In this document: in pieces, positions 3,442 through 30,090 of the stretch
Layout: every line of letters begins with the position of its first letter
How positions within the stretch are numbered: position 1 is the stretch's first letter
Assembly (NCBI GenBank): GCA_951812655.1
Contig: OX638319.1
Span: forward strand, 1,185,620 to 1,217,619
DNA length: 32,000 nucleotides
Origin: an uncultured Candidatus Nitrosopumilus sp.
GTDB taxonomy: Archaea > Thermoproteota > Nitrososphaeria > Nitrososphaerales > Nitrosopumilaceae
Direction: 5' to 3'
The notes under the pieces: model-generated
What the model saw: the letters and a program-made list of their open reading frames with translations, nothing else
What the model was told of the DNA's origin: nothing
The model's database searches: none
Position numbers and translations under genes: made by a program

Positions 3442-3497
3442 AGTATGATTTTTAAAAAAACAATTTTTCTCTAATTGCTCAGTTGTGTTTTCTTCAA

Positions 3498-4448
3498 ATG
3501 ATGTATATCAATCATTGTGATCTTTTATTTTTAGATGGTTCATTTTCATTTATGATAATTGTATTTTATTTTTTTATAATCTCTCAAATTTTTCATATCA
3601 TGAAACATGTTTTGGATTACAAAAATGAGCCAATTACTATCAAGTATGAATCCAGCATTGCTGATGTTTTAAAAAAAATTATTGACGAAAAAATGAGCAG
3701 ATTTTTGGTCACAAAAAATGACAAAATCACTGGTATTGTGACTGAAAAGGATTTGGGATTCCTTCTTCTATCTGAAGACACCAAAAGAAAACTGGATGAA
3801 ATTCCATTGTCGGTAATCACTAAAACAGTAATTTCTGTTGATGAGTTTGCTAGCATGCATGAATGTGCGGAAACTATGCTAACAAAATCAATTGGGTCAT
3901 TGGCAGTAGAATCAAAAAAGGAAATTACTGGAATTTTAACAAAAACTGATCTCGTCAATTATTTTTCTAAAACTTATTCTGAAGAAAAGATGGTTGGAGA
4001 GTACATGTCTCCATATTATGCTTGGTTGTACTTTGATACTCCGATATACAAAGTGGTTCGGAAAATGATTGACGAAAAGATATCTCGACTAATACTTCGA
4101 GATCGTGATGAGGTACCTGTAGGAATCATAACATTTCGAGATTTGTTTGAATTGGCACTAAAACAAGGAAATTATGATGAAGTTCTTGATAACACTGATC
4201 CAGCAATATCGGTAATATTTCCTCGAAAGGGATTCATTTCAGAATCTGGGTTTGGTGGATCTATAAAGGCAGATGCCATCATGAGTAAAAATATTGTATC
4301 CGTAAATTACGATGATGATTTGGCAAAAGCTTGCAAGGTGCTCTTGGAGAAAAACATCAACGGTGCTGCAGTCTTATCTAAGCATGGAGGTATTGTGGGA
4401 ATCATTAGTAAAACCGATATCGTTAAGGCTGTGGCATTTTTAAAATAA
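3498..4448 (+). CDS. four-CBS-domain protein with hydrophobic N-terminal segment
   Basis: Four CBS repeats by eye (...GIVTEKDL, ...GILTKTDL, ...GIITFRDL, ...GIISKTDI). The ORF opens at TTG 3483. ATG 3498 keeps the hydrophobic FSFMIIVFYFFIISQIF segment; ATG 3600 is an alternative start. Confidence 0.8.
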   Translation: MMYINHCDLLFLDGSFSFMIIVFYFFIISQIFHIMKHVLDYKNEPITIKYESSIADVLKKIIDEKMSRFLVTKNDKITGIVTEKDLGFLLLSEDTKRKLDEIPLSVITKTVISVDEFASMHECAETMLTKSIGSLAVESKKEITGILTKTDLVNYFSKTYSEEKMVGEYMSPYYAWLYFDTPIYKVVRKMIDEKISRLILRDRDEVPVGIITFRDLFELALKQGNYDEVLDNTDPAISVIFPRKGFISESGFGGSIKADAIMSKNIVSVNYDDDLAKACKVLLEKNINGAAVLSKHGGIVGIISKTDIVKAVAFLK

Positions 4449-5169: not shown

Positions 5170-5550
5170 TCAGCTCAAACGTTTGTAAATTTCTTTGAAC
5201 TCCATTGAAATGTTATATGCAATGTTTAGTCCATGTGTTAGTTTATTCATAGATGACATGTCATTTCCAATTTGCCTTAAAAGTGTCAATGCTTTTTGTG
5301 GTGATGTTGGAGAAGGTTGTTTCTGACCTGTCCATGTCTTAAAGGAATCTCCTACATCCAGACAAAAGTTCAAAATAAACTCTTTCCAGTTTGGTATTTC
5401 GTTGAGATTTTTTCCTCCAAAACACATTTCTGACAATTCACGAAATTCATTTTCTCTGTCTATATGCAGTATTTCGAGTGCTTTGTGGACTTTTTCTTCG
5501 GTATATTCTGAAGAATTTAGCATGTACATTCCTTCTAAACTCATAATCAA
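5170..5550 (-). CDS. hypothetical protein (126 aa)
   Basis: Uninterrupted ORF with no recognised family. Several possible Met starts within the first 10 codons. Confidence 0.45.
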   Translation of the reverse strand: MIMSLEGMYMLNSSEYTEEKVHKALEILHIDRENEFRELSEMCFGGKNLNEIPNWKEFILNFCLDVGDSFKTWTGQKQPSPTSPQKALTLLRQIGNDMSSMNKLTHGLNIAYNISMEFKEIYKRLS

Positions 5551-5813
5551 CTTCTGTAAAATTCACAATTTAACTATTTCAAAATTTACATGTTTGAAAA
5601 TATGTTTTTTTGTATCATGGCAAATCAATGGCAATACTGAATTGAGTCAATATTTTAATAATCTAATTATTAGAAAGGATGATTATTGCAAAAATGTTCA
5701 TTTTTTGTCGCATTGTATTTTCAGTCCGATTAACGTCCGTTCAACCTAGTCATAACACTCTTGGATATCTAGACCTTGTTCAAGATTGTATGTGATCCCT
5801 TATTTTATTCAAG

Positions 5814-6128
5814 TTAGATGGAACTAGTGCCGCGTTTTTTTGTGCACAAATCAAGTGCATCCTCAATTCCAGTAACAAAGACTTTTCCATCTCCTTTGGT
5901 TCCGGTACATGCAACACTTGCAATTGAATCTAGAACTTCTTCAACTTTGGGTCCATCCACAATACAGATAATCATTTCTCGATTAATGTACTGGCCAACT
6001 AATGGTGGATCTTCAGTTCCCTGACCTTTTACAGAGTGGACAGTTATTCCTCCTACCCCATTCTTTTTAATTGCAGACACCACGTTGTCTCTTAGTTCAG
6101 TTCTAACAATGGCTTCAATTTTCTTCAT
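5814..6128 (-). CDS. P-II (GlnB/GlnK) family signal-transduction protein with atypical T-loop
   Basis: MKKIEAIVRTEL...GITVHSVKGQG...TGTKGDGKVFV aligns by eye to GlnB (MKKIEAII...VKGFG...TGKIGDGKIFV). Start ATG 6128 is preferred over 6146 because the TATA ATATAAAAAAA (6148-6158) lies 19 nt upstream. Confidence 0.8.
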   Translation of the reverse strand: MKKIEAIVRTELRDNVVSAIKKNGVGGITVHSVKGQGTEDPPLVGQYINREMIICIVDGPKVEEVLDSIASVACTGTKGDGKVFVTGIEDALDLCTKKRGTSSI

Positions 6129-6147
6129 GTTACATGTTTGTGCCACG

Positions 6148-6166
6148 TTTTTTTATATCAAGGGTA
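6148..6166 (-). promoter_or_regulatory. P-II promoter: TACCCTTGATAT followed by TATA
   Basis: Gene direction reads TACCCTTGATATAAAAAAA - 19 nt - ATG 6128. Confidence 0.5.
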
Positions 6167-6255
6167 TAATTCTCATTTCTGATTTTAATTGATACCTGAT
6201 TCTTAAAAATAATTGTTATTTTCTTTTGTTCTGTCCAAAATGCCTTCAAACCTTA

Positions 6256-6279
6256 TGCGTATTTATAATATCAAGGGTA
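6256..6279 (-). promoter_or_regulatory. second copy of TACCCTTGATAT plus TATA-like box
   Basis: The exact 12-mer of 6155-6166 recurs at 6268-6279, again followed in gene direction by TATTATAAATA. Confidence 0.35.
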
Positions 6280-6424
6280 GATTTTCAGGTTTACTGTGGT
6301 TAGTTTAATGCATTTTTTTAGATAAACTTGAACATTGTAACATGCCAAAAAATTGTATATTACAAGTTTGAAAGTGCCCGTGTTTTTCACTGCTGAAAAT
6401 TATGATTAAAAAAATGATGATGGG

Positions 6425-6847
6425 TTACTTGACTATCAGTATTGGGATCTTTGATTTATGCATAACATAGTTTGACGTACTTCCTAGAAATGCTTCTTTT
6501 ACTCCCCCCTGACCTCTTGCACCAATCACAATCATGTCGAATTTACCTTTATTCGCATGTTTGATAATTTCAGAACCTGTATGACCTCCACCTGTTTCAT
6601 ATTTGAATGTGACACCAGCTTTTTCAGCACGATTTAGTGCGGGACCAATGGCTTTAACTGCCTTCTTTTCTGCGTCATCATCCATTTTCTTTGTGAGCTT
6701 TATTCCTGCGGCTAATGGCAAATGAAATACATATAATCCTGTGATGATGGCATTGCTGCCTTTTGCAATTTCAACTGCTTGGTCTAGCCCTCTAATGGAA
6801 TTTGCTGATCCATCAAGTGGAACAAGAATTTTTTTCAACTTCGTCAT
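6425..6847 (-). CDS. universal stress protein (UspA family)
   Basis: KILVPLDGS...VIGARGQGGVKEAFLGSTSNYVMHKSKIPILIVK, with an intact G-x2-G-x9-G-S/T ATP-binding motif. TATA TTTATATT lies 22 nt upstream of the ATG. Confidence 0.9.
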   Translation of the reverse strand: MTKLKKILVPLDGSANSIRGLDQAVEIAKGSNAIITGLYVFHLPLAAGIKLTKKMDDDAEKKAVKAIGPALNRAEKAGVTFKYETGGGHTGSEIIKHANKGKFDMIVIGARGQGGVKEAFLGSTSNYVMHKSKIPILIVK

Positions 6848-6887
6848 TACTTAACACAATCAATATTGTAATATAAAAAACATCCTT

Positions 6888-8657: not shown

Positions 8658-9512
8658 GTGAATATTAAAAATGGAAAACTGTCTGAAGTGATTTCAAATC
8701 CTATCACTGTTGGTCCAAACATGACTCTCATCAAGACAAGAGAAATCATATTGAAAAACAAAATAAAACGTGTGATAGTTGTAGATAAAACAAAACCTAT
8801 TGGAGTAATTACAGAAAAAGATATTGCAAAAAAAATTTATGAATTGGGCACAAAACCAATTAAATCCGTCAAAGCTGTAGACTTCAAACCAAAAATACTC
8901 TTTACTTTAACTCGAGATAATTCTGTTCAAGAATGTGCAAAACTCATGAGAAGACATAGAATTAACTCCGTGATAATACTAAACAAGAATAATTCGTTAG
9001 ATGGAGTTGTAACAAAAACTAATCTGGTATCTTCTTTTCTTATTGGGAATGTCTCATCAGTCAAAGTTTCAAAACTCATGAAAAAAAAACTTATTACAAT
9101 TGCTCCAAGTGATCCTATACTGTATGCGGAGAGTCTGCTTTTAAAATACGGTATATCCAGAATCATCGTAAAGCGGAATCGAATCCCTGTAGGTATGATA
9201 ACTTTCAGGGATTTTGTGCCTGCCAAAATACCTCAATGGATTGCGGAATCTGCTGATCCTAAGGATGTTCAGGAATACAAATTCAAAGAAGGATTGAAGG
9301 AAAACCATTCAAATCAACTGAGTTATCTGTTTCCGTTTCATGCTACGGACATAATGTCCACCAAATTGATAACCGTTGAAGCAGATGATGATGTAGAGGT
9401 TGCCATTACCAGTATGATAAAACATAATGTTAGCGGACTTCCAGTGCTCAAAAACTCCAAATTGGTTGGCATCATAACAAAATCCGATATTGTAAACAGT
9501 CTTGCTGAATGA
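8658..9512 (+). CDS. four-CBS-domain protein
   Basis: Four CBS repeats (...GVITEKDI, ...GVVTKTNL, ...GMITFRDF, ...GIITKSDI). Same architecture as the 3498-4448 protein. Confidence 0.85.
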   Translation: MNIKNGKLSEVISNPITVGPNMTLIKTREIILKNKIKRVIVVDKTKPIGVITEKDIAKKIYELGTKPIKSVKAVDFKPKILFTLTRDNSVQECAKLMRRHRINSVIILNKNNSLDGVVTKTNLVSSFLIGNVSSVKVSKLMKKKLITIAPSDPILYAESLLLKYGISRIIVKRNRIPVGMITFRDFVPAKIPQWIAESADPKDVQEYKFKEGLKENHSNQLSYLFPFHATDIMSTKLITVEADDDVEVAITSMIKHNVSGLPVLKNSKLVGIITKSDIVNSLAE

Positions 9513-9514
9513 TT

Positions 9515-9946
9515 CTACTTGACAATTAACAATGAGCAAGCAGAAGTCTGAGCAAGCTTGTTTGAAACACTTCCCAGAATAACTCTGGATACTGTTCCCA
9601 GTCCTTTGCTTCCGACAACTATAAGATCACATTTTTCTGTCTTGACTGTTTTTTCAATCTCCGAAACAATGTTCCCTTCCTTTAGTACCGTCTTTGCATC
9701 GAAACTTTTTTCTAAAACTATCTTATTGGCTTTTTTCAACGTGCTTGTTCCAAACTTACGAAGCAGTTCCAGGTATTCGTTACGATCTAGAATGTTCAAC
9801 GTGGGGGATTTTTCTACAACATACAGCAAAATAATTTTGGCATCCAATGCTTCTGCCATTTCACATGCGCGCCGTAATGCTTTTTCAGAAAACCTTGAGC
9901 CGTCAACTGGAACGAGAATTTTTTTAAAACTGTATTTTTTGTTCAT
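9515..9946 (-). CDS. universal stress protein (UspA family)
   Basis: KILVPVDGS...VVGSKGLGTVSRVILGSVSNKLAQTSACSLLIVK. Overlaps the upstream Usp gene by 4 nt (9943-9946). Confidence 0.9.
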   Translation of the reverse strand: MNKKYSFKKILVPVDGSRFSEKALRRACEMAEALDAKIILLYVVEKSPTLNILDRNEYLELLRKFGTSTLKKANKIVLEKSFDAKTVLKEGNIVSEIEKTVKTEKCDLIVVGSKGLGTVSRVILGSVSNKLAQTSACSLLIVK

Positions 9947-10374
9947 TTCACGATCAATACAGGTTTCTTGGATTTATGTAATACGTAGTTTGAAACACTT
10001 CCCAAGAACATCTCTTTTGCAGAGCCTCTTCCGCGTGCGCCAATCACTACAAGATCAATGGCGTTTCTTGCATTGTTTGCAAATCTTGCTATGTCGTATC
10101 CAGGATCTCCCGCAAGTGATTTTGCGGTCAGATGAATCCCTTTCTTTGCAGCTCTGACTTTTGCATTGTCCAGTAATTTTTTTACCTCTGTCATGGAGTT
10201 AAAATCCAAGAATCCCAACGGATGGATGGCATAAATTCCGGGCACGGACTTCACCGATAATGCTGTTATTGTTCCATGAGATTGTCGTGCGATGTGGATG
10301 GCCATGTCCAGTCCTCGAATCGAATTTTTTGAACCGTCTAGCGGTACTAGTATTTTTTTAGTTTTGATGGCCAT
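9943..10374 (-). CDS. universal stress protein (UspA family)
   Basis: KILVPLDGS...VIGARGRGSAKEMFLGSVSNYVLHKSKKPVLIVK. Confidence 0.9.
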   Translation of the reverse strand: MAIKTKKILVPLDGSKNSIRGLDMAIHIARQSHGTITALSVKSVPGIYAIHPLGFLDFNSMTEVKKLLDNAKVRAAKKGIHLTAKSLAGDPGYDIARFANNARNAIDLVVIGARGRGSAKEMFLGSVSNYVLHKSKKPVLIVK

Positions 10375-11289: not shown

Positions 11290-11751
11290 TTAATTATATG
11301 GGCTGTAATCTGAAAAAATTTTAACTACTGAATGAAAGTACATGTCCCTCACGTCATCTTCTACACACACTGATAACAAATTGACAATGTCCCTTGCTGT
11401 GATGATTCCTACTACCTTTTGGTCCTCAATGACTGGCAATTTCATGATTCCACGATCATGCATCAGATCCGATGCGGTTCTTACAGATTCGTCTGAATTT
11501 ATTGAAAATAACGGGGTGGACATTATTTGTTTTACCTGTGAAGTTATTTGATAGGCATGAGCTGCAACTTTTACTGCAAAATCTCTATCCGTGACAATAC
11601 CCATGGGTATGTTGTCTTCCATTACGATCAACGCACCTACCTTTGCATCTTCCATCATTTTTGCAGATTCATTTATTGTCATTGCCGAATCCACTGAAAC
11701 TACTGACTTGTTCATAACATCTGAAATTGTCATTGTTTTGGCCTTTTTCAT
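11290..11751 (-). CDS. CBS-pair protein
   Basis: Two CBS repeats (...GIVTDRDF, ...GIITARDI). Confidence 0.85.
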   Translation of the reverse strand: MKKAKTMTISDVMNKSVVSVDSAMTINESAKMMEDAKVGALIVMEDNIPMGIVTDRDFAVKVAAHAYQITSQVKQIMSTPLFSINSDESVRTASDLMHDRGIMKLPVIEDQKVVGIITARDIVNLLSVCVEDDVRDMYFHSVVKIFSDYSPYN

Positions 11752-18574: not shown

Positions 18575-19987
18575 TCATATCGGTTTACCTTTGAACTGAT
18601 AATCTGTTATCTTATGGAATGTGTTGTGTGAAGCAATCACCGCAAGTGTAGATAATGCAGCCCATATGAAATTTCTGATTGTTATTATCTCATTTGGTTT
18701 ATCGATTATCAAAGATGTTTGGAAGACTACGTAAAAGTTATCGAACATCCAAAATGCCATAGTAATCCATGAGAGCAGACCTCCTATAAGAAATCCTAAT
18801 CTTGTTTTACTTCTTACAAAAACTATTGCGGTGATAATTGTAATGTACCAAAGTATTCCTGCTATCACCCATGCTGGTTCAAAGAGCTCGATTCTGTCGT
18901 CCAACCAGTAGTATGTGGTTCCAACTACTGCCATTGCAATAAGGGATACAAGTAAAAGTTTCTGATTAATTTTAAATCCCGTTTTTTCTTCTCTTAATGG
19001 GGTAGTTGGAGGGTTGTTTCTAATCTCATTTGTTGCAATATCTATGGCTTCCGTTACAGATTTGAGATTCATTGGAATCACTTTGACTATCGAATCATCG
19101 GTTACTACTGTATCATGTACCAAACTGTCAATCAAAGGCCTTGCCAACGATGCTTTAACAGGAGTGATCAGGTCAACCCAGTATGATGATAGACGTGTAG
19201 TTAGAAATGGAATTTCAATTACGAATAGTTTTTTGTTCAGATACTGAGAATAAACTCTCATGAGCTGCTCGTATGTTATTTTGTCTTTTCCTCCTATCTC
19301 GTATATTTTCCCTGTCGTTTCCTGATGCGTCATGCATCCTGATGGATATTCTATCACGTTATCCACTGCTATGGGTTGTGCAAGTGATTTCACCCATGAA
19401 GGACAAACCATGACGGGAAGTCTTTCTACAAGGTATCGCAGCATCGCATATGATCCTCCCTGTGCTCCAATAATCAAAGACGCTCGTAGTTCTGTTATTG
19501 GAATTTTCCCTGATGCCCGAATCTCTCCTACCTCTTTCCTGCTTCTCATGTGAGGTGATAACTTTAGACTGTCATTGACCAGTCCCCCGAGATAAATTAT
19601 TCTCTTTACTCCTGCCTTTGATGCAGCTGCAACAAAGTTTTGTGCCTGAATTTTTTCACGTGATGCGAACTCCTTCCAGTGATTCTTGCTACCTTCCATC
19701 GAATGAAGCAGATAATATGCAATTTCAACTCCTGACAATGCATTTTCCAATTGAGAGACATCAAATACGTCTGCTTTGACATATTTCACATTGTGCGTAT
19801 TTTGAATATTCTTCCTAGACATTCCCTTTACAGAATAGCCTCTTTTGGTGAGATGTGAAATTAAACGTGATCCGATAAACCCTGTGGCGCCAGTTACCAT
19901 TATACTGAAAGGTTTGTATTTTGGCGCTGAACATTCTAGAGTCTGTGTAGATTTGGCTTGATATTGTTTCTCTAACATCCGAATCAC
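18575..19987 (-). CDS. NAD(P)-binding SDR/NmrA-like protein fused to a C-terminal four-TM domain
   Basis: Rossmann motif IMVTGATGFIGSRL near the N-terminus and four hydrophobic helices in the last ~130 aa. GTG 19987 lies 2 nt after the DUF1059 stop. Confidence 0.8.
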   Translation of the reverse strand: MIRMLEKQYQAKSTQTLECSAPKYKPFSIMVTGATGFIGSRLISHLTKRGYSVKGMSRKNIQNTHNVKYVKADVFDVSQLENALSGVEIAYYLLHSMEGSKNHWKEFASREKIQAQNFVAAASKAGVKRIIYLGGLVNDSLKLSPHMRSRKEVGEIRASGKIPITELRASLIIGAQGGSYAMLRYLVERLPVMVCPSWVKSLAQPIAVDNVIEYPSGCMTHQETTGKIYEIGGKDKITYEQLMRVYSQYLNKKLFVIEIPFLTTRLSSYWVDLITPVKASLARPLIDSLVHDTVVTDDSIVKVIPMNLKSVTEAIDIATNEIRNNPPTTPLREEKTGFKINQKLLLVSLIAMAVVGTTYYWLDDRIELFEPAWVIAGILWYITIITAIVFVRSKTRLGFLIGGLLSWITMAFWMFDNFYVVFQTSLIIDKPNEIITIRNFIWAALSTLAVIASHNTFHKITDYQFKGKPI

Positions 19988-20180: not shown

Positions 20181-20217
20181 ATATTTAACTAGTGATCAAA
20201 CTAATAACTAGTGCTAA
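20181..20217 (-). promoter_or_regulatory. motif-B promoter of the DUF1059-SDR operon
   Basis: Gene direction reads TTTAGCACTAG - 19 nt (ending GATCACTAG) - TTAAATAT - 20 nt - ATG 20160. The 9-mer TTAGCACTA (20209-20217) spans -57..-49. Confidence 0.6.
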
Positions 20218-20384: not shown

Positions 20385-20834
20385 GTGACAGATGTAGAAT
20401 TGTTCAAAAATATCACTGTCGCTTTAATTACTCCCACGCACACAAAAAAGTCATTTGATCTGGGTCTGGCAATGGCAAAAAAATTTGGTGCTGAATTGTC
20501 TGTTATTGAATGTGTTTATAAGACTCCTCCAAAATTCTACTTCTTTGAAACAGATTCTGACAAGAAGATTTTACGAGACAAAATTTCAAAACTCAAGGAT
20601 GAGCTGAAAAAATGGAAGGAATTGGGTGAGAAAGAAGGTGTAAAAACTCACACGAAATTCACATTGACTGACTCAATTGCTCATTGGGTAATTGACTATG
20701 CTAAGGAACACAAAGTAGAACTTTTGGTTGTGGACTATCCAAAGCTTTCGATGATAGAGGCAAACCACTTTGATGACATTATTAACACCATTCATCATAA
20801 GGCTCATTGTCATGTGTTGACGACAAAAAACTAG
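20385..20834 (+). CDS. Usp-like protein lacking the ATP-binding glycine motif
   Basis: Usp-like layout (ITVALITPTH...AELSVIECVY...VELLVVDYP...HCHVLTTK), but no G-x2-G-x9-G-S/T motif. GTG start. Confidence 0.55.
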   Translation: MTDVELFKNITVALITPTHTKKSFDLGLAMAKKFGAELSVIECVYKTPPKFYFFETDSDKKILRDKISKLKDELKKWKELGEKEGVKTHTKFTLTDSIAHWVIDYAKEHKVELLVVDYPKLSMIEANHFDDIINTIHHKAHCHVLTTKN

Positions 20835-23084: not shown

Positions 23085-24413
23085 CTATTCTTGAAGATTC
23101 AACGGAATTGATGTATTTCCAAAGTCTTCATTAATTCTAAAAAAATACTCTTTTGATGAATCATATTCAAATTTTGTTCCTCCATATCCTATGTTTGGAC
23201 CAAATAACATGTTGAACTCTCTGGAATCGTTTGGATTCATTGTAATTTGGCCACTTGTAAAGTCCATTCCAGAATATTTGAATTCTTTTTCTCCGTTTGA
23301 TACATCATATGCGCATATCTGTGGACTAGTGCAGTTTATCGTGACAATCTCTGAGCTTGTATTTTCTGCAAGTATGCGAATTGACAGTATTGTTTGTCCT
23401 GTTGATGTCGTTGAGAATTCGTTACCTTCTGAGTTGAACCCTTTCCAATAGTAAGTGATTGGCCCTACTGAGAATTTTTCTCCTTCTGTTTTGTATTCAT
23501 AAAGGGTGATGGATTTTTTTATCGGTTTTTGACAATCTATTTTTTTGTATGCAGTTGAAATCTCTGAGCATTTCTCTAGATCCTGGTATAATTTTGTTAA
23601 TTCTGGTTTTATGTTTTTGACATTAACGGATGATGTGGGATTTGATTCATTGTCTAAAGATGGTGAAATTATTCCTTCCTTTATCAGGTGCTGTATGCCT
23701 GAGACGAATTCTCCGTCAGATATCGCTCCGTCTGCCCACCATCCTGCATTGCTCTTGATCCAGTCCGGAATCGGCTCTCCAGAGCTCTGAGATGAAACGG
23801 TGGTTGGAGGAATTGTGACAATTCCTTCCTTTATCAGGTGCTGTATGCCTGAGACGAATTCTCCGTCAGATATCGCTCCGTCTGCCCACCATCCTGCATT
23901 GCTCTTGATCCAGTCCGAAATGTGGTTTTGTGATGGTATATTTTTTCGAAAACTTGGATCTATTGATTCTAAAATCTCATTCATGTCATGTCCTGGAATT
24001 TTCACAACAGCTGCAGAAATTATTTCTATATTGTCACCATTGGGGGTTGTTTTATCGATATATTTTGCATAAAGCATGTCTCCTTCGTTAGATGCCAGTC
24101 TGTTTTTTGAGGTTTCGCCTGAATTGGCAACGTATACTGATCCCTTGAAGATTCCACTAAACACCCCATTCTCTATTACCTCAATTTCTAATCCATTAGG
24201 AGATGTATCTGACCACACTTCAATCATAAATTTGTCTGCAAAATTGGGATATTCCTTTTTGTTCATGTCATCATCAATCACATATATCTGTGCAAAGGAA
24301 TTGCTAGAAACTATTTCCTGCTTCCAATATACAATTCCGAGATCATTTGATTCTGCAAATGCCAGGGGAGTGAACATGAAAAAAAGTGGGATGACTAGGT
24401 TAATCTTTCTCAA
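23085..24413 (-). CDS. secreted protein with two copies of a W-rich ~33-aa repeat
   Basis: TTG start and signal peptide MRKINLVIPLFFMFTPLAFA. Carries the repeat DWIKSNAGWWADGAISDGEFVSGIQHLIKEGI twice. The C-terminal domain is paralogous to the 24540-25451 product. Confidence 0.8.
   Translation of the reverse strand: MRKINLVIPLFFMFTPLAFAESNDLGIVYWKQEIVSSNSFAQIYVIDDDMNKKEYPNFADKFMIEVWSDTSPNGLEIEVIENGVFSGIFKGSVYVANSGETSKNRLASNEGDMLYAKYIDKTTPNGDNIEIISAAVVKIPGHDMNEILESIDPSFRKNIPSQNHISDWIKSNAGWWADGAISDGEFVSGIQHLIKEGIVTIPPTTVSSQSSGEPIPDWIKSNAGWWADGAISDGEFVSGIQHLIKEGIISPSLDNESNPTSSVNVKNIKPELTKLYQDLEKCSEISTAYKKIDCQKPIKKSITLYEYKTEGEKFSVGPITYYWKGFNSEGNEFSTTSTGQTILSIRILAENTSSEIVTINCTSPQICAYDVSNGEKEFKYSGMDFTSGQITMNPNDSREFNMLFGPNIGYGGTKFEYDSSKEYFFRINEDFGNTSIPLNLQE
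23681..23917. repeat. 237-bp tract identical to 25133-25369
   Basis: A base-by-base comparison found no mismatch. It contains an internal 97-bp duplication with a 150-bp period (23671-23767 vs 23821-23917). Confidence 0.9.
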
Positions 24414-24539: not shown

Positions 24540-25451
24540 TCATCCCAAGTTTAATGGGATTGATTGACTTCCAAATGATTCCATTATTCGGAAATGGTAT
24601 TCTTTTGATGGATCATATTCAAATTTTGTTCCTCCTCCGCCAATGTTTGGCCCGAAGAACATGTTGAATATTTTTGGTTCACCAGGTTTTAGGATTATTT
24701 GACCGTTTGTAAAGTCCATTCCTGAATACTTGTATTCCATATCTCCGCCTATTACGTCATAGTTACAGATTACTGGTCCTGTACAAAACAATGATTCGTT
24801 TTTATCCGAACCCGTATTCTCTACCAGTATTCTTAGATTCAGCAGTGCTTGACCTGCGGATGTTATCTCAAAACTGTTTCCATCTGTACCTAGTCCTGGC
24901 CAATAGAATGTGACTGGACCAGCTTGAAATTGCTCTGAATCCATTTTCATGTTGTATGCAGTAATGTTATGCTCTGCATCTCTTTCACAGTTGAGTCGTT
25001 CGTAGGCCTTAGTTATTTCCTCACATCTGTTTAATTCTGCTTGTAATTCAGACAATTCTGAATTGTCAGATGTTTCAATTTTTGATTCGACAGGCGAGTT
25101 TTCTGATATTGGGATACTCACAATTCCAGTTTTTATCAGGTGCTGTATGCCTGAGACGAATTCTCCGTCAGATATCGCTCCGTCTGCCCACCATCCTGCA
25201 TTGCTCTTGATCCAGTCCGGAATCGGCTCTCCAGAGCTCTGAGATGAAACGGTGGTTGGAGGAATTGTGACAATTCCTTCCTTTATCAGGTGCTGTATGC
25301 CTGAGACGAATTCTCCGTCAGATATCGCTCCGTCTGCCCACCATCCTGCATTGCTCTTGATCCAGTCCGGAATTTCTTCTTGTGCTGAAGCAAACGAGGT
25401 GACAGATCCAACTAATAGTATTGCGGAAATTGCAATTATTGTTGCTTTCAT
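24540..25451 (-). CDS. secreted paralogue with the same two W-rich repeats
   Basis: Signal peptide MKATIIAISAILLVGSVTSFASA, two DWIKSNAGWWADGAISDGEFVSGIQHLIK repeats, and a C-terminal domain alignable to the 442-aa protein (…YKYSGMDFTNGQI…FGPNIGGGGTKFEYD…). Confidence 0.8.
   Translation of the reverse strand: MKATIIAISAILLVGSVTSFASAQEEIPDWIKSNAGWWADGAISDGEFVSGIQHLIKEGIVTIPPTTVSSQSSGEPIPDWIKSNAGWWADGAISDGEFVSGIQHLIKTGIVSIPISENSPVESKIETSDNSELSELQAELNRCEEITKAYERLNCERDAEHNITAYNMKMDSEQFQAGPVTFYWPGLGTDGNSFEITSAGQALLNLRILVENTGSDKNESLFCTGPVICNYDVIGGDMEYKYSGMDFTNGQIILKPGEPKIFNMFFGPNIGGGGTKFEYDPSKEYHFRIMESFGSQSIPLNLG
25133..25369. repeat. 237-bp tract identical to 23681-23917
   Basis: Second copy, direct orientation, offset 1452 bp. 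Confidence 0.9.
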
Positions 25452-25473
25452 AGGATGCTTTTTTCACTCATTG

Positions 25474-25509
25474 CATATAAGCTAGTTCTAATTTTTTATC
25501 TAGTGGTAA
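25474..25509 (-). promoter_or_regulatory. motif-B promoter of the 303-aa gene
   Basis: Gene direction reads TTTACCACTAG - 18 nt (ending TTAGAACTAG) - CTTATATG - 22 nt - ATG 25451. The 9-mer at 25501-25509 spans -58..-50. A further copy, TTGGCACTA, is at 25536-25544. Confidence 0.5.
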
Positions 25510-25522
25510 AAAATACAATTTA

Positions 25523-26140
25523 ATGCAAAATCTACTAGTGCCAACATCAATTTTTTCTTATGGAGTTTATAACCGATGGTTAATTTCTCAAATAGTGAAA
25601 AAGAATTTCATTCATAGCGGACCTGAAAAAGTGACTGTAAATGAAAAAGAGATAGTCCACTTTGTCATTAACAGATTTTCAGAAATAAAAAAATCAAAAA
25701 AAATAGCTGAACTTGTAGAATTTCAGGCAATGAACAAGTACATGCTGATGGTTCACAATCAACAACAATTGAAAATCCTTGGAAATCTAGTTGCAAGCCA
25801 CAAAACAATTCCAATTGAAGATATTTTAGAACAATACCATGCACATCTGAAAAATGCCCTTTCCAAACCCCCTACAATCAAGACTCATCTGAATGCCATG
25901 ATGCATATTTTTGGATATTTTTCCAAGCATTTCACTTCTGCAGAAAAAGATCTGTATTTTCAATTGCTATCTCAGTTCAAAAATGAAAAAATAACTGTTG
26001 GGAAAACGCTGTCTGAGATTGGTCCGCTGATTTACAGATTTAATGACACATATCTTGCTAGACAGACCTATTTCTTGTTATATGCTGACACCCGACCTGG
26101 AGTTCTTTTTGCTGTTTTTGACAATAAAATTTTGCGCTAA
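25523..26140 (+). CDS. DUF1722 (YbgA-like) protein
   Basis: VEFQAMNKYMLMVHNQQQLKILGNLVAS...THLNAMMHIFGYFSKHFTSAEKDLYFQLLSQFKNEKI...YLARQTYF follows the DUF1722 pattern. The exact start is uncertain. Confidence 0.65.
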   Translation: MQNLLVPTSIFSYGVYNRWLISQIVKKNFIHSGPEKVTVNEKEIVHFVINRFSEIKKSKKIAELVEFQAMNKYMLMVHNQQQLKILGNLVASHKTIPIEDILEQYHAHLKNALSKPPTIKTHLNAMMHIFGYFSKHFTSAEKDLYFQLLSQFKNEKITVGKTLSEIGPLIYRFNDTYLARQTYFLLYADTRPGVLFAVFDNKILR

Positions 26141-26147
26141 TCATCAT

Positions 26148-26184
26148 TTGGCACTATGAATGATAATAGGCATTAGTTAAATAT
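26148..26184 (+). promoter_or_regulatory. motif-B promoter of the B12-binding gene
   Basis: TTTGGCACTAT - 19 nt (ending TAGGCATTAG) - TTAAATAT - 20 nt - ATG 26205. The 9-mer TTGGCACTA (26148-26156) spans -57..-49. Confidence 0.6.
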
Positions 26185-26204: not shown

Positions 26205-27053
26205 ATGGTATACATACGTACAAAGAAAGTAAAGGGCGTTCAGTACCTGTATCTTGTTAAGAGCGTATGGGATCCAAAAAATAAGACATCTAAACAAGAG
26301 ATAGTAAAATATCTTGGAAAGGCAGCGGATGTAGTCAAGGATGATATTCCTGTTGAGTATAGGGATAATCCAAAAATTCTATCGGTTCTGGCAGCCCAAA
26401 ATCCTGAGGACATCAAAAGAAGAGAGGAGGCGTCTGAAAAATCCAGGAAACTCCTTTACAAAAAATTGACAGATGGCGACATTAACATCTGTGTTAAGAT
26501 TTACGATGAATACGTAAAGATTTTCAATACCACAGATTTTTTTGATAAAATTTTGAAACCAGTGATGTACCGAATAGGTGACGAGTGGGCTAATAATAAA
26601 ATCAGCATAGCAACAGAGCACGTTGCAAGCAATGTTGCTCAAACGCTGGTCAAAATCATCATGGATAAAGAGACCGTTAATGCCAACAAAAAGAAAGTTC
26701 TTTTGTGTGTACCACTTGGCGAAGAACATCATCTTGGATGCGATGTGATCGAGACGTTTCTTACTGGCAAAGGTTACAAAGTATTCAACATGGCTACATC
26801 CATCCCATCAGATTCGATATTGTATTTCATAGAGCACAATGAGCCCGATGTCGTAATGGTTTCAATCACGTTAGATGACAATCTGAAAACTGGTCAGCGC
26901 TTGATAAAAAAGATCAAAGATAGTTTTGACGTTCCGATACTTGTAGGGGGATTTGCATTGGAACAAGAAAAGATACCCAATTTTGACGCAAAAGTCATTG
27001 TTAATCTTGCACTCAATGAACTGCCAAAAATAATACGAACAGCAATCAGCTAG
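26205..27053 (+). CDS. CarH/LitR-type cobalamin-binding photoreceptor-like protein with non-MerR N-terminal module
   Basis: Helical-bundle signature W128-x9-E138-H139 (WANNKISIATEH, codons 26586-26621). Rossmann B12 motif E173-x-H175-x-x-G178 (EEHHLG), then 41 residues to SITL and a later VGG. The N-terminal 40 aa (VYIRTKKVKGVQYLYLVKSVWDPKNKTSKQEIVKYLGK) is not a MerR HTH. Confidence 0.75.
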   Translation: MVYIRTKKVKGVQYLYLVKSVWDPKNKTSKQEIVKYLGKAADVVKDDIPVEYRDNPKILSVLAAQNPEDIKRREEASEKSRKLLYKKLTDGDINICVKIYDEYVKIFNTTDFFDKILKPVMYRIGDEWANNKISIATEHVASNVAQTLVKIIMDKETVNANKKKVLLCVPLGEEHHLGCDVIETFLTGKGYKVFNMATSIPSDSILYFIEHNEPDVVMVSITLDDNLKTGQRLIKKIKDSFDVPILVGGFALEQEKIPNFDAKVIVNLALNELPKIIRTAIS

Positions 27054-28383
27054 AATTTTGTAAAAATTTTTCTATCTTTGGATGGCATAGAATTGAACTA
27101 TGCGCTGCAGAGTCTGTACCTATTCCGTAACTGATGGTAGAATCTCCTACAAAGAAAAGTCCCTCGACATGTGATATCTGATGGGGCATCTTTGACTTCC
27201 AAACCATGCCTGGCTCTTTAACTACCGATTCTACCAATTTCCAGGCCATTGGCCTTTCCCAAAGCAATGATTTTTCAAAATCAGGGTATATTGAACTCAG
27301 CTCGTTTTTCATATTTTCTACAATCTGTTTGATTTTTTTTTGATTTTCAGCTTCTTCAGGGAGAACGGGCGTTCCGGCAATCATGAGATGTTCCCAAGGG
27401 GGACATACAGAGGGAGTTATGTTTGAAATGAAGAAAAAACCCTTGGTGGTGAAATCTCCCACTGGAAAAACTATCTGTTTGGAATCTATTTTTCTATTTA
27501 GGGCGAAATGTACTTCAACAACAGCTGTTGTTTTATCAAGGCAATTGACTTTTTTAATAAATTCTTGATCAAACACATCGTCCTCAAACAGATTGTTAAT
27601 TGCTTGATATGCTGGAAGTGATATCACCACGCATTTAGAATGATGAAACGTTCCATCCTGTGTTATTATGCCCTCAACTTTGGAATCTTTTATGATGATT
27701 CTTTTAATTTGCGAATTAAGGTGAATTTTTCCACGATTGTCTTCAACAAAACCCTGTAAGATTCTGGAAATTGCATCGTATCCACCATCAGAGGGATATG
27801 CAAATTCACTTGTTCCTCCTTTGAATGGGTTGGCACGTATCATAGTTCGAGCAAATTCTCCCAATGAAATGTGATCAGCTGTATCCGCAAATGCTAGCAT
27901 GCAAACCGCTTCAAAGAATGCATTTGTATTCACATCCAGCTTTTTTGTTATCTCTGTCAATGACAGATTGTCCCATTCTTCGGTTTTTTTCATTGATGTA
28001 AATGCCATGGGTAGTAGTATTCTGAGCAGTTTGACTCGACTTGAAAATGGAATTAACGTTAGTTGGAGTAGGTCCGATATGCCCTTTGGATATTTGTGAA
28101 ATCCTGAATCTGAATAAAACGCTATGTTGTCCACTTTGGCAAGATTGAGATTTGCCTCTATGTTGAGTTTCTTTAGAATTTCAAATATTGCAGATTTTTT
28201 GTAAAAAGGCATGATGTGGAATCCGTTGTCTAATATGTGGTTTTTGAAGGTCGTTGAGGCCGTTCTTCCCCCTACTTTCCCCATTTTTTCAAAAATTTCC
28301 ACTGGATGGCCGTTTTTTGCAAGTAGAGATCCAATGGTTAGTCCTCCAACTCCTGCTCCGATGACATGAATTCTGTTTCTCAT
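27046..28383 (-). CDS. FAD-dependent oxidoreductase of the phytoene desaturase (CrtI/CrtD-like) family
   Basis: N-terminal dinucleotide fold IHVIGAGVGGLTIGSLLAKNGHPVEIFEKMGKVGGR and C-terminal FFVGDSTISYGIGTDSAAHSS. Its 3' end overlaps the convergent B12-binding gene by 8 nt. Confidence 0.8.
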   Translation of the reverse strand: MRNRIHVIGAGVGGLTIGSLLAKNGHPVEIFEKMGKVGGRTASTTFKNHILDNGFHIMPFYKKSAIFEILKKLNIEANLNLAKVDNIAFYSDSGFHKYPKGISDLLQLTLIPFSSRVKLLRILLPMAFTSMKKTEEWDNLSLTEITKKLDVNTNAFFEAVCMLAFADTADHISLGEFARTMIRANPFKGGTSEFAYPSDGGYDAISRILQGFVEDNRGKIHLNSQIKRIIIKDSKVEGIITQDGTFHHSKCVVISLPAYQAINNLFEDDVFDQEFIKKVNCLDKTTAVVEVHFALNRKIDSKQIVFPVGDFTTKGFFFISNITPSVCPPWEHLMIAGTPVLPEEAENQKKIKQIVENMKNELSSIYPDFEKSLLWERPMAWKLVESVVKEPGMVWKSKMPHQISHVEGLFFVGDSTISYGIGTDSAAHSSILCHPKIEKFLQNSS

Positions 28384-28403: not shown

Positions 28404-28440
28404 GTATTTAACATCGTGCTAACTCTCTACATAGTGCTAA
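28404..28440 (-). promoter_or_regulatory. motif-B promoter of the CrtI-like gene
   Basis: Gene direction reads GTTAGCACTAT - 19 nt (ending GTTAGCACGATG) - TTAAATAC - 20 nt - ATG 28383. The 9-mer at 28432-28440 spans -57..-49. Confidence 0.6.
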
Positions 28441-28444
28441 CTAT

Positions 28445-28882
28445 CTATTTATCTGCATTTTCAATGAATTTTTCTGACAAGGCAAGAAACTCTTCCATAA
28501 CGTTTGACATGTGACGCTTAAGAATAAATCCAAACGGTAGAAACATCTTTGCAATTCCGTTTAGTTTAATTGAAACATCTATTGCTATGTCGGTTCCACC
28601 ATTTGTTTCAAAGTAATGTTCAACAAACATCGTTCCTCTCATCATTCCAGAAAGAATGTGGACTTCGTGAACGTCTGGACGCAATATTATGTGTTTGACT
28701 TGGACATTTAAAAAATATATTTTTTCATCAACAAGTATTTCATTTTTGAGTCTTTTCTGTATCTTCAAACTTTTGAAATGTTTTGGCATTATCTTGGAAA
28801 AATTTTCAATGTCTATGCTAATGGAAAAAAGTATGTCTCTTTTTATCTTGGATTTTTTCTTAAGTCTAAAATGTATCATCAT
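28445..28882 (-). CDS. SRPBCC (START/polyketide-cyclase-like) superfamily candidate
   Basis: 145 aa. The beta-rich core plus a long C-terminal helix (HMSNVMEEFLALSEKFIENA) resembles Polyketide_cyc2-type proteins. The assignment is tentative. Confidence 0.45.
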   Translation of the reverse strand: MMIHFRLKKKSKIKRDILFSISIDIENFSKIMPKHFKSLKIQKRLKNEILVDEKIYFLNVQVKHIILRPDVHEVHILSGMMRGTMFVEHYFETNGGTDIAIDVSIKLNGIAKMFLPFGFILKRHMSNVMEEFLALSEKFIENADK

Positions 28883-28933: not shown

Positions 28934-28970
28934 GTATATTAAAAATTAAAATTGATTTAGATAGTGCCAA
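28934..28970 (-). promoter_or_regulatory. motif-B promoter-like element upstream of the SRPBCC gene
   Basis: Gene direction reads GTTGGCACTAT - 19 nt - TAATATAC, then 51 nt to ATG 28882, implying a leader of about 31 nt. Confidence 0.4.
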
Positions 28971-29023
28971 CAAAAAAATATTTCATGCCACTTATGATTA
29001 TAAACAATTGGATTGTGAAATAT

Positions 29024-29060
29024 TTACCACTAGAATATTTTTTTATTCCGCTTTAAATAA
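29024..29060 (+). promoter_or_regulatory. motif-B promoter of the uORF-TFB-Zn-ribbon operon
   Basis: TTTACCACTAG - 19 nt - TTAAATAA - 20 nt - ATG 29081. The 9-mer TTACCACTA (29024-29032) spans -57..-49. Confidence 0.55.
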
Positions 29061-29080: not shown

Positions 29081-29191
29081 ATGCCACTATGGCCTCTTAA
29101 TAAAAACATCTGGCAAAATCACATGATGTTGATTTCTTTCACAAAACAGATGATGGAAACTTACAGTTTTGGAGTCGAAAATAAAAAATGA
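29081..29191 (+). CDS. 36-codon leaderless upstream ORF coupled to TFB
   Basis: MPLWPLNKNIWQNHMMLISFTKQMMETYSFGVENKK. Its ATG sits 20 nt after the TATA box, as at the sibling promoters. Its TGA (29189-29191) overlaps the TFB ATG (ATGA). No family recognised; it may only mark the transcription start. Confidence 0.3.
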   Translation: MPLWPLNKNIWQNHMMLISFTKQMMETYSFGVENKK

Positions 29192-30090
29192 ATGATGTTG
29201 TACATTTGAGAAATTGTAAAAAAATTTCACTAATCACTGATCTTATTACTGGTGAAATTGCGTGCAGTCATTGTGGCGCGGTTGTCTCAGAAAAATCTGT
29301 AGCTGAAAGTTCCGATTCTTCGTTTGCTTCAGGCGAGGAATACATGAGCAATTCCAGGACAGGTCAGAAAATCTCTCTGAAAATGGCAGACATGGGACTC
29401 TCAACAGTCATCGAATCCAAAGATCGTGATTCTACAGGAAGATCCCTGTCTGCTGAGAATAGAAGGATGTTTTATCGTCTGAGAATGTGGGACAGAAACA
29501 GCAGGTTTGCAAACACCAGTCAATCGTATGTGAGGGCATTTACCTTGTTAGACGGTTTGAAGTCTAAACTGGGTCTTTCTGATAATGTTGTAGAGCAAAC
29601 GGCATATCTTTTCAGGAAGATTACGATAAAAAAAATTCTTGCAGGTAGATCTACTGTTGGAATGCTGTGTGCTACCACATACATCGCATGCAGGATGACT
29701 AACACTCCTAGAACTATTCAGGATGTGGCAAGTGCTGGTAACATAAAAAGAAAACAACTTCAAAGCATCTACAGATTTCTTTTGCAGGAACTGGAAATAT
29801 ATCCTGAATCTTACAGTCCTACTGAATTTGTAACAAGAATTTCTAACGAGTCAAATGTTTCGGAAAAAACAAGACGATATGCAATTAGTATTCTGCTCAA
29901 ATCTGAAAAGATTGGCCTCACAACTAGTAAAAATCCCATGGCAATGGCAGCAGCAGCCCTTTACCTTTCATCTTTGAAGCATAAAGAGAAAATTTCACAA
30001 ACAAAAATTTCCAGGATTTCGGGTATCAGTTCTGTAACTATTCGTGATAGATCTGGTGAGATTAGGCAAAAACTGGGAGGTGAGATATAA
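29188..30090 (+). CDS. tfb: transcription initiation factor B (TFIIB homologue) paralogue with degenerate Zn ribbon
   Basis: The N-terminal ribbon-like segment NCKKISLITDLITGEIACSHCGAVV has only 3 Cys (C-x2-I...C-x2-C). It is followed by B-reader/linker regions and two cyclin-fold repeats (…LCATTYIACRMTNTPRTIQDVA…, …AAAALYLSSLKHKEKISQTKISRISGISSVTIRDR…). Confidence 0.9.
   Translation: MNDVVHLRNCKKISLITDLITGEIACSHCGAVVSEKSVAESSDSSFASGEEYMSNSRTGQKISLKMADMGLSTVIESKDRDSTGRSLSAENRRMFYRLRMWDRNSRFANTSQSYVRAFTLLDGLKSKLGLSDNVVEQTAYLFRKITIKKILAGRSTVGMLCATTYIACRMTNTPRTIQDVASAGNIKRKQLQSIYRFLLQELEIYPESYSPTEFVTRISNESNVSEKTRRYAISILLKSEKIGLTTSKNPMAMAAAALYLSSLKHKEKISQTKISRISGISSVTIRDRSGEIRQKLGGEI

Follow-up and report, generated by a model that had tools for sequence, protein, structure and literature searches.

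Do ammonia-oxidising archaea (AOA) sense light with vitamin B12? Nitrification in seas and soils is driven by these organisms, which light inhibits and which produce much of the cobalamin in the ocean. To our knowledge, they have no described photoreceptor or regulator that responds to light. We analyzed 32,000 nucleotides of an uncultured Candidatus Nitrosopumilus sp. (contig OX638319.1, positions 1,185,620 to 1,217,619; the whole stretch is called the window) that contain a gene for a B12-binding protein, here called the regulator. Its C-terminal part resembles the sensor of the bacterial B12 photoreceptor CarH, whereas its N-terminal part does not resemble the MerR domain of CarH. Our analyses indicate that the protein is probably a one-component transcriptional repressor that senses light by means of coenzyme B12, and a functional analogue of CarH/LitR in archaea; repression is the presumed direction of its control.

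The predicted B12 sensor

A regular-expression check of the translated open reading frame (ORF) found both CarH-like signatures that the initial annotation had reported. Residues 128-139 read WANNKISIATEH, giving W128-x9-E138-H139, and residues 173-178 read EEHHLG, giving E173-x-H175-x-x-G178. The two domain searches that it had proposed were also positive. PF02607 matched residues 84-152 with 42.6 bits (gathering cut-off 23) and PF02310 matched residues 164-256 with 41.9 bits (gathering cut-off 32.1). The top NCBIfam model was the CarH equivalog NF052513 (TransRegCarH), which covered only the sensor part (residues 77-266) and scored 54.6 bits against a cut-off of 400. Corrinoid methyl-transfer models, including that of the MetH B12 domain, scored 24.8-39.3 bits against cut-offs of 215-1497.

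A profile of the family ranked B12 photoreceptors with experimental validation first among proteins of known structure. The best matches were a photocobilin (8j2x, 1.4e-29), the binding domain of CtMerR from Chloracidobacterium thermophilum (8jbs, 3e-28) and Thermus CarH (TtCarH; 3whp/5c8d, 4e-25), with MetH (2e-21) and AerR (7te2, 8e-18) at lower ranks. In the profile alignment, the family pattern GelW...EH falls on 'GEAWHRGEIGVAEEH' of TtCarH and GEeH falls on GERH of 'PPGERHEIG'. This places W128, E138-H139 and H175 on TtCarH W131, E141-H142 and H177, in agreement with the correspondence given in the initial annotation. The four CarH residues are key for binding adenosylcobalamin (AdoCbl), and the published light-response signature consists of GxxW, EH, GxxH and GxxxP (PMC11796333). 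The same paper reports red-shifted spectra, at about 540-560 nm, for light-responsive binding domains. The window protein carries the first three elements as G125-D-E-W128, E138-H139 and G172-E-E-H175.

These residues are also conserved within the family. In an alignment of 48 members, with identity down to 23%, H175 is invariant, and W128, E138, H139, G125, G172, E173 and P170 are at least 90% conserved. All 120 of 120 close homologs keep Wx9EH and GExH. An AlphaFold2 (AF2) model built on the family alignment had a mean pLDDT of 95.5 and a pTM of 0.85. Photoreceptors came top when this model was searched with Foldseek, with TM scores of ~0.8 normalised to the CarH and CtMerR binding-domain chains and 0.5-0.55 against the longer photocobilin chains. 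The C-terminal 200 residues are thus predicted to be a CarH-type cobalamin-binding module, made of a four-helix bundle and a Rossmann domain. AdoCbl would be the cofactor, and photochemistry and an oligomer switch would follow by similarity to CarH.

The family is archaeal. We found 2130 homologs at E<=0.001 in a database clustered at 90%, the closest of which are named Nitrosopumilus or Nitrosarchaeum, and 5996 matches among the representatives of 50% clusters; the full-length members reach as low as about 23% identity. Its members come from Nitrosopumilaceae, Nitrososphaeraceae, Nitrosocaldus and a Ca. Thermoplasmatota metagenome-assembled genome, the taxonomy of distant members being taken from cluster names and gene content. 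Some of the contigs carry archaeal Rpb7, Spt4 and S24e genes. The initial description of the protein as thaumarchaeal fits its near-identical homologs and loci, which are from Nitrosopumilus or Nitrosarchaeum, but is too narrow for the family, which has at least one Ca. Thermoplasmatota member. We rejected the database names 'histidine kinase', 'response regulator' and 'MtbC1' that some entries bear, as no such domains were found and scores were far below cut-offs.

The N-terminal module and IS1634 transposases

What replaces the DNA-binding domain of CarH? No MerR or other helix-turn-helix (HTH) Pfam model matched the regulator at E<=1. Residues 1-40 instead form a basic β-sheet in the AF2 model, with three antiparallel strands (2-9, 12-23 and 28-39; pLDDT about 95-97). 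This is the best conserved part of the family, with invariant R5, K7, Y14, Y16, V18, Q31, Y36 and G38. Its net charge is +8 (family mean +6.5), against -4 for the remainder of the window protein.

We scanned 38 N-terminal sequences with Pfam and NCBIfam at E<=10, and no consistent family covered the module; weak CD1375_fam matches in eight of the 38 (best 7e-4) were not interpretable. An N-terminal profile found nothing among PDB sequences, and tblastn of the N-terminus found no match in phage genomes. Plasmids were searched by tblastn with a composite query that follows the N-termini of high-GC members, chiefly P0260 and P0204. The search returned 17 records, 12 of which are annotated as IS1634-family transposase at the matched stretch (E down to 4e-5), and the match starts at residue 1-3 of the annotated transposases. 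Profile-sequence comparison with hhalign placed family residues 2-46 on transposase residues 1-45 at 92% (P 7.6e-7) and 77% (P 2e-5). Both groups share the N-terminal pattern M-x-F/Y-I/L-R/K ... G-x-x-Y-x-x-L-V-E/K-S ... P-K/R-Q-x-x-I-x-x-L-G.

On these alignments, the module is an unannotated domain homologous to the extreme N-terminus of IS1634-family transposases. The relationship is confined to the first ~45 residues. Pfam detects only the DDE domain in those transposases, whereas the regulator has no DDE_Tnp_1 match and no DDE catalytic domain, its module being fused to a B12 sensor instead. The initial annotation had called the segment an unrelated replacement of the MerR domain. The replacement is clear, and the segment is indeed not MerR and has no Pfam or NCBIfam model, but 'unrelated' does not hold given the homology to the transposases. 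In DDE transposases the DNA-recognition domain is usually N-terminal. The searchable literature documents no role for the N-terminus of IS1634 transposases. We interpret the module as the putative DNA-binding domain of the regulator.

Eight distant relatives of the sensor (P0202, P0210, P0214, P0217, P0231, P0238, P0247 and P0251; ~280-300 amino acids) have, by eye, an XRE-type HTH N-terminus ('...QKELA..LGVSQSTIANYE...') fused to the Wx9EH/ExH module. These fusions look like another possible non-MerR DNA-binding output on a CarH-type sensor.

A promoter-linked repeat and its predicted regulon

The initial annotation had proposed TTRSCACTA sites as binding targets, and this motif turned out to be strongly enriched and linked to promoters. 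The window has nine occurrences, where 0.71 would be expected. All but one of these sites are intergenic and lie at 20.2-29.1 kb, adjoining an NmrA-like gene, two secreted-protein genes, a DUF1722 gene, the regulator, an amine-oxidase-like gene and a paralog of transcription factor B (TFB). A sigma-70 promoter and terminator scan gave nothing, and such a scan is not applicable to archaea.

We gathered 83 related loci, which together with the window make 84 sequences; a locus search with a narrow family alignment returned Nitrosopumilaceae only. The 84 loci contain 641 sites, whereas 198 column-permuted control motifs gave 39+-25 (maximum 197). A peak of 133 sites lies at -150..-50 of the regulator start, and further sharp peaks lie at the amine-oxidase and TFB-side promoters. 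Counted within 200 nt of the gene start, the motif precedes the regulator in 80/84 loci, DUF1722 in 63/63, the amine oxidase in 47/49 (always in the same orientation), the secreted protein family in 58/63, a 120-residue protein in 41/46, TFB in 38/63 and the NmrA-like gene in 36/63. It was absent upstream of four unrelated neighbour families (0/21, 0/22, 0/12 and 0/13). These named non-regulon neighbours served as the control in place of all ORFs, whose upstream rate of 40% is uninformative because it includes spurious ORFs and the regulon itself.

The regulator promoter has a fixed plan. Its consensus over 79 non-redundant loci is TTaGCACTAg-N9-TTagCAtTAgTTAaATA, with the repeats 19 bp apart in 71 of them, repeat 1 most often beginning 57 nt before the ATG, and a conserved GTTAWATA TATA box. 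Because the TATA box of the window is centred ~25 nt before the ATG, the regulator mRNA would be leaderless. The amine-oxidase-like promoter follows the same plan, with its repeats followed by a TATA box (28405-28411) and the ATG at 28383.

The motif also stays beside the gene across archaeal orders. In Ca. Nitrosocaldus, where the protein is 34% identical, TTGGCACTA-N9-TTAGCACTA and then a TATA-like box lie upstream of the regulator, and the gene after it is preceded by a further repeat pair. In a Nitrososphaeraceae genome, the two-repeat layout is found ahead of the regulator and also ahead of the adjoining NmrA-like gene. Three divergent loci of high-GC archaea have a pair of RGTGCCSAW direct repeats, spaced by exactly 20 bp, ahead of a TATA-like box (5245-5273 in L084, 5254-5282 in L090 and 5266-5294 in L092, each before an MMPL gene). 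These repeats have the GGCAC core in common with the AOA operator, in the opposite orientation. RGTGCCSAW was derived after the sequences had been inspected, so shuffle statistics are only indicative, and what carries the argument is that a pair with this 20-bp spacing recurs ahead of a TATA-like box in three loci that have diverged. Here the gene of the MMPL-family transporter comes first in an operon and the regulator second, with start and stop touching, which suggests light-controlled export of some lipid or pigment.

Judged from this distribution, the two-repeat promoter layout is ancient. The motif is best explained as being read by the regulator product itself, its presumed occupant, because the motif tracks the gene over large distances while the neighbours change.

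The genes behind these promoters form a small predicted regulon (Table 1). The amine-oxidase-like protein, which resembles flavin adenine dinucleotide (FAD) enzymes, has weak matches to the HpnE and CrtI families. The NmrA-like gene adjoins the regulator in Nitrososphaeraceae and in one high-GC archaeon. With the TFB paralog, the regulon may include an alternative general transcription factor; in Streptomyces, LitR reportedly controls the sigma factor LitS. In two relatives (L002 and L003), a cyclobutane pyrimidine dimer (CPD) photolyase gene lies downstream of DUF1722 in the same orientation, with DUF1722 heading a string of genes that ends in the photolyase. A Pyr_excise (pyrimidine-dimer DNA glycosylase) gene is found in L001 and L086, and in Nitrosocaldus such a gene immediately precedes the operator of the regulator. 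None of the motif-bearing genes is one for cobalamin synthesis or uptake. Bacterial LitR regions contain photolyase, short-chain dehydrogenase and FAD-dependent oxidoreductase genes (PMC9758184). By analogy with these regions, the content of the predicted regulon fits a role in the response to light or ultraviolet (UV) radiation.

Table 1 Features of the regulator, its predicted operator sites and its predicted regulon (window coordinates)
Feature	Position	Strand	Basis or remark
Regulator gene, B12-binding protein of 282 amino acids	26205..27053 (stop codon counted)	+	ATG-start ORF and translation
N-terminal module, residues 1-40, basic three-stranded β-sheet, putative DNA-binding domain	26205..26324	+	AF2, family alignment, IS1634 matches
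Linker, residues 41-66	26325..26402	+	DIPxEYR motif conserved, P49 invariant, short helix 56-65 (family alignment, AF2)
Four-helix bundle (B12-binding_2), residues 67-155	26403..26669	+	PF02607 7e-11; helices 67-89, 93-106, 109-129, 135-155
G125xxW128 and E138-H139, predicted upper-face cobalamin cap	W128 26586-26588; E138-H139 26616-26621		Within the four-helix bundle
Rossmann-type B12-binding domain, residues 164-282	26694..27050	+	PF02310 1e-10
G172-E-E-H175, predicted lower axial cobalt ligand	H175 26727-26729		In the Rossmann domain; H175 invariant, aligns with TtCarH H177
Operator repeat 1 (TTGGCACTA), regulator promoter	26148..26156	+	Begins 57 nt before the ATG
Operator repeat 2 (TAGGCATTA, degenerate copy)	26167..26175	+	19 bp past repeat 1; abuts the TATA box, at the B recognition element (BRE) position
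TATA box TTAAATA, regulator promoter	26177..26183	+	Predicted assignment
Operator pair, amine-oxidase-like gene	28414..28440	-	TTAGCACTA 28432-28440 and TTAGCACGA 28414-28422
Two operator sites, 25501-25509 and 25536-25544	25501..25544	-	Divergent promoter region, secreted-protein gene / DUF1722
Operator site between the NmrA-like gene and a universal-stress-protein gene	20209..20217	-	
Operator site upstream of the gene for a secreted protein of 442 amino acids	24462..24470	-	Within the near-palindrome TTAGCACTAGTGCAAA
Two operator sites, 28962-28970 (-) and 29024-29032 (+)	28962..29032		Intergenic, 145-residue protein gene / TFB paralog
FAD amine-oxidase / phytoene-desaturase-like gene, predicted regulon member	27046..28383	-	PF01593 3.7e-27; neighbour in 50/84 loci
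DUF1722 gene, predicted regulon member	25523..26140	+	PF08349 9e-34
NmrA/epimerase-like NAD(P)-binding protein, 470 amino acids, predicted regulon member	18575..19987	-	Neighbour in 63/84 loci
TFB (TFIIB) paralog, possible regulon member	29188..30090	+	PF00382 2e-27; neighbour in 63/84 loci

Some features of the neighbouring genes are worth recording. The first ATG of DUF1722 (a 205-residue ORF) precedes the operator site at 25536-25544, which places that site inside the ORF, and the homologs have 178-180 residues. Translation probably begins at an in-frame GTG near 25595, which is preceded by a TTTATAA box at about 25567. The regulator gene converges with the amine-oxidase-like gene, the two sharing their last 8 bp (27046-27053), and no terminator-like hairpin was found between them. 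A protein of 145 amino acids (28445-28882, - strand), with no Pfam or NCBIfam match, is encoded between the amine-oxidase-like gene and the TFB paralog; its gene neighbours the regulator in 52/84 loci and has the motif directly upstream in 7/50.

Two paralogous signal-peptide proteins (23085-24413 and 24540-25451, both on the - strand) have two copies each of a ~33-residue segment ('PDWIKSNAGWWADGAISDGEFVSGIQHLIKEGI') and a similar C-terminal domain, with no Pfam match. The segment gives near-identical DNA repeats, and these in turn give identical spurious ORFs on the opposite strand (23800-24072 and 25252-25485). The Nitrososphaeraceae locus L093 encodes a PF01035 methylguanine-methyltransferase-type DNA-binding domain and an AlkB-like 2-oxoglutarate-Fe(II) oxygenase (5452-6850), both within a few kb of the regulator, which adds to its association with DNA repair. 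Farther from the regulator, the window contains universal-stress-protein genes (6425-6847, 9943-10374 and 20385-20834) and CBS-domain genes (3483-4448, 8658-9512 and 11290-11751), with VIT1 iron-transporter and cupredoxin-like genes among them.

Mechanism, alternatives and significance

How would such a protein control its promoters? Our analyses predict that the sensor half binds AdoCbl, H175 serving as lower axial ligand and Wx9EH capping the adenosyl group. Loaded with cofactor in the dark, the protein would form oligomers, and its N-terminal β-sheets would bind the two direct TTRSCACTA repeats on one face of the DNA; the 19-bp spacing corresponds to about two turns of the helix. Of the two repeats, the promoter-proximal one falls on the BRE and adjoins the TATA box, and its occupation would block assembly of TFB and the TATA-binding protein (TBP). 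Light would cleave the Co-C bond, loosen the oligomer and free the promoters of the regulator itself, of DUF1722 (followed by the photolyase in relatives), of the NmrA-like dehydrogenase, of the FAD amine-oxidase-like protein and of the two secreted proteins. The promoter of the TFB paralog would probably be freed too.

This scheme has much in common with the CarH/LitR regulators (TtCarH, Myxococcus CarH and Bacillus LitR), which are MerR-family repressors that depend on AdoCbl and are released by light. Shared features are the four-helix bundle and Rossmann sensor with W-x9-E-H and an aligned lower-ligand His, the overall length and domain order with a DNA-binding domain (putative here) at the N-terminus, a direct-repeat operator over the core promoter with likely autoregulation, and a regulon with photolyase-type and oxidoreductase-type genes. 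However, the bacterial proteins have a MerR winged helix where the regulator has its 40-residue β-sheet module, they target sigma-70 -35/-10 elements rather than an archaeal BRE and TATA box, and we found no carotenoid operon near the regulator. The protein is best read as working like CarH/LitR while standing outside that family, because the MerR domain is absent and the equivalog cut-off is not reached. CtMerR and the photocobilins (8jbs, 8j2w/8j2x/8j2y), whose cobalamin-binding domains were recently validated as light-responsive, match the sensor half best in both sequence and structure and have the same GxxW / EH / GxxH signature (PMC11796333). In contrast to the regulator, photocobilins lack a DNA-binding domain and carry either a GGDEF output or, at the C-terminus, a globin-like domain that binds bilin. 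The DNA-binding domain of CtMerR is of the MerR type, and none of these proteins is archaeal.

Several observations weigh against a CarH-like repressor. As the initial annotation had noted, the position of TtCarH His132, directly after the Trp, is occupied by Ala (Ala129); this is the case in 110/120 close homologs. His132 forms the bis-His light-state adduct of TtCarH, and because it is Ala here, the photocycle and the fate of the cofactor may differ from those of TtCarH. G178 of ExHxxG is present in the window protein and variable in the family. If GxxxP corresponds to 'GPDTP' of TtCarH, the aligned stretch is A197-T-S-I-P201, in which P201 is at least 90% conserved, whereas family members have Ala or Ser in place of the Gly. 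The operator geometry also differs, with two 9-bp repeats 19 bp apart instead of the three 11-bp tandem repeats that TtCarH is said to bind. The predicted N-terminal fold had no significant neighbour among solved structures, including DNA-binding structures, and DNA binding by the N-terminus of IS1634 transposases is itself assumed by analogy with other transposases. No photolyase gene lies in the window, the photolyase genes of relatives have no motif of their own (0/15), and their membership in the regulon presupposes co-transcription from the DUF1722 promoter. Not all sites suit simple occlusion: because the sites of the DUF1722 promoter point the other way and are located upstream of its likely TATA box, some sites could be activating. 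Finally, the B12 domain of E. coli MetH is nearly as close in fold (1bmt, Foldseek E 6e-11). Fold similarity alone cannot separate CarH from MetH; the conserved cap residues and the profile ranking do.

The comparison with MetH leads to a corrinoid methyl-carrier of the MtbC/MtaC type, the function implied by the JGI name of several homologs ('methanogenic corrinoid protein MtbC1'). The MetH cobalamin domain and MtbC/MtaC share with the regulator the B12-binding_2 and B12-binding fold and a His-on DxHxxG-type loop, and the NCBIfam MtgC, MtaC and MtbC models give weak matches (30-39 bits). However, these scores are far below the cut-offs of 215-450 bits, the profile scores of such proteins are below those of photoreceptors, and no methyltransferase partner genes appear in the locus gene tables that were read. 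The regulator also has the Wx9EH cap, an extra basic, DNA-binding-like N-terminal domain and its own operator, as expected of an autoregulated gene. Wx9EH is part of the signature that sets light-responsive cobalamin-binding domains apart from others (PMC11796333). We regard a methyl-carrier as highly improbable.

A partner switch resembling AerR/PpaA would leave the sensor in place and give the N-terminal module a protein partner, such as the TFB paralog, with another factor recognising the repeats. The AerR/PpaA antirepressors are stand-alone proteins that act through the partner repressor CrtJ/PpsR and use light-generated hydroxocobalamin. They share the two-domain B12 module and light-dependent gene control with the regulator, and AerR is among its relatives of known structure. 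The TFB paralog is a conserved neighbour, and the missing structural match of the N-terminal fold to DNA-binding proteins is compatible with protein binding. On the other hand, AerR/PpaA consist of a B12 module of about 210-230 residues, whereas the regulator has an extra conserved N-terminal region of ~66 residues and a co-conserved operator, and we saw no PpsR/CrtJ-like gene in the loci read. The module is strongly basic and homologous to a DDE transposase N-terminus, the usual position for DNA recognition, and the repeats track the gene across Nitrosopumilaceae, Nitrososphaeraceae, Nitrosocaldus and high-GC archaea despite changing neighbours. A partner switch is therefore quite unlikely.

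A light-independent regulator of cobalamin status, with B12 as a metabolite signal as in a protein equivalent of the B12 riboswitch, is also unlikely, if slightly less so. AOA are large cobalamin producers, the His132 equivalent is missing, and CarH-type repression inherently requires B12, so that B12 status would be sensed in any case. The regulator gene of N. cobalaminigenes is directly preceded by a Peripla_BP_2 (BtuF-like) gene. However, this gene has the operator in 0/21 loci, and the motif-bearing genes encode DUF1722, short-chain dehydrogenase-like, FAD-oxidase-like, secreted and TFB proteins rather than cobalamin biosynthesis or transport. The Pyr_excise gene next to the Nitrosocaldus operator and the conserved Wx9EH cap, which accommodates and protects the adenosyl group as a photoreceptor signature, argue instead for the light-sensing repressor.

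Extended to the whole family, the light-sensing repressor predicts B12 photoreceptors across archaea, from Nitrosopumilaceae, Nitrososphaeraceae and Nitrosocaldus to Thermoplasmatota-type members. These would combine a CarH-type sensor with a β-sheet DNA-binding domain shared with, or recruited from, IS1634 transposases, and would block the BRE and TATA box of a light- and UV-protection regulon that includes a dedicated TFB paralog. We favour this broader proposal, with somewhat more reserve. What is known here is the sensor; what is new is the DNA-binding output, the domain of life and the promoter logic. Full-text searches, with subscription-only literature outside their reach, found no B12 photoreceptor of AOA, no such architecture and no paper naming both CarH and Nitrosopumilus; a prior description is possible. 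A survey of photoglobins considers archaea only for the phyletic spread of photoglobin homologues, and neither this architecture nor Thaumarchaeota. The SignatureFinder survey makes no mention of archaea (PMC11796333).

If the proposal is true, the regulator would be the first light-sensing transcription factor of AOA and the first archaeal B12 photoreceptor, extending B12 photoreception from Bacteria to Archaea and showing a bacterial-type sensor coupled to the archaeal TBP/TFB machinery. It would also give a function to the conserved N-terminus of IS1634 transposases, and offer a structurally new, compact, non-HTH DNA-binding output for optogenetic tools based on CarH and B12. The candidate is concrete, comprising one named gene, a small predicted regulon and a 9-bp operator whose geometry on archaeal core promoters is defined. 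In organisms that provide the sea with cobalamin, it would tie protection from light to the supply of this vitamin.

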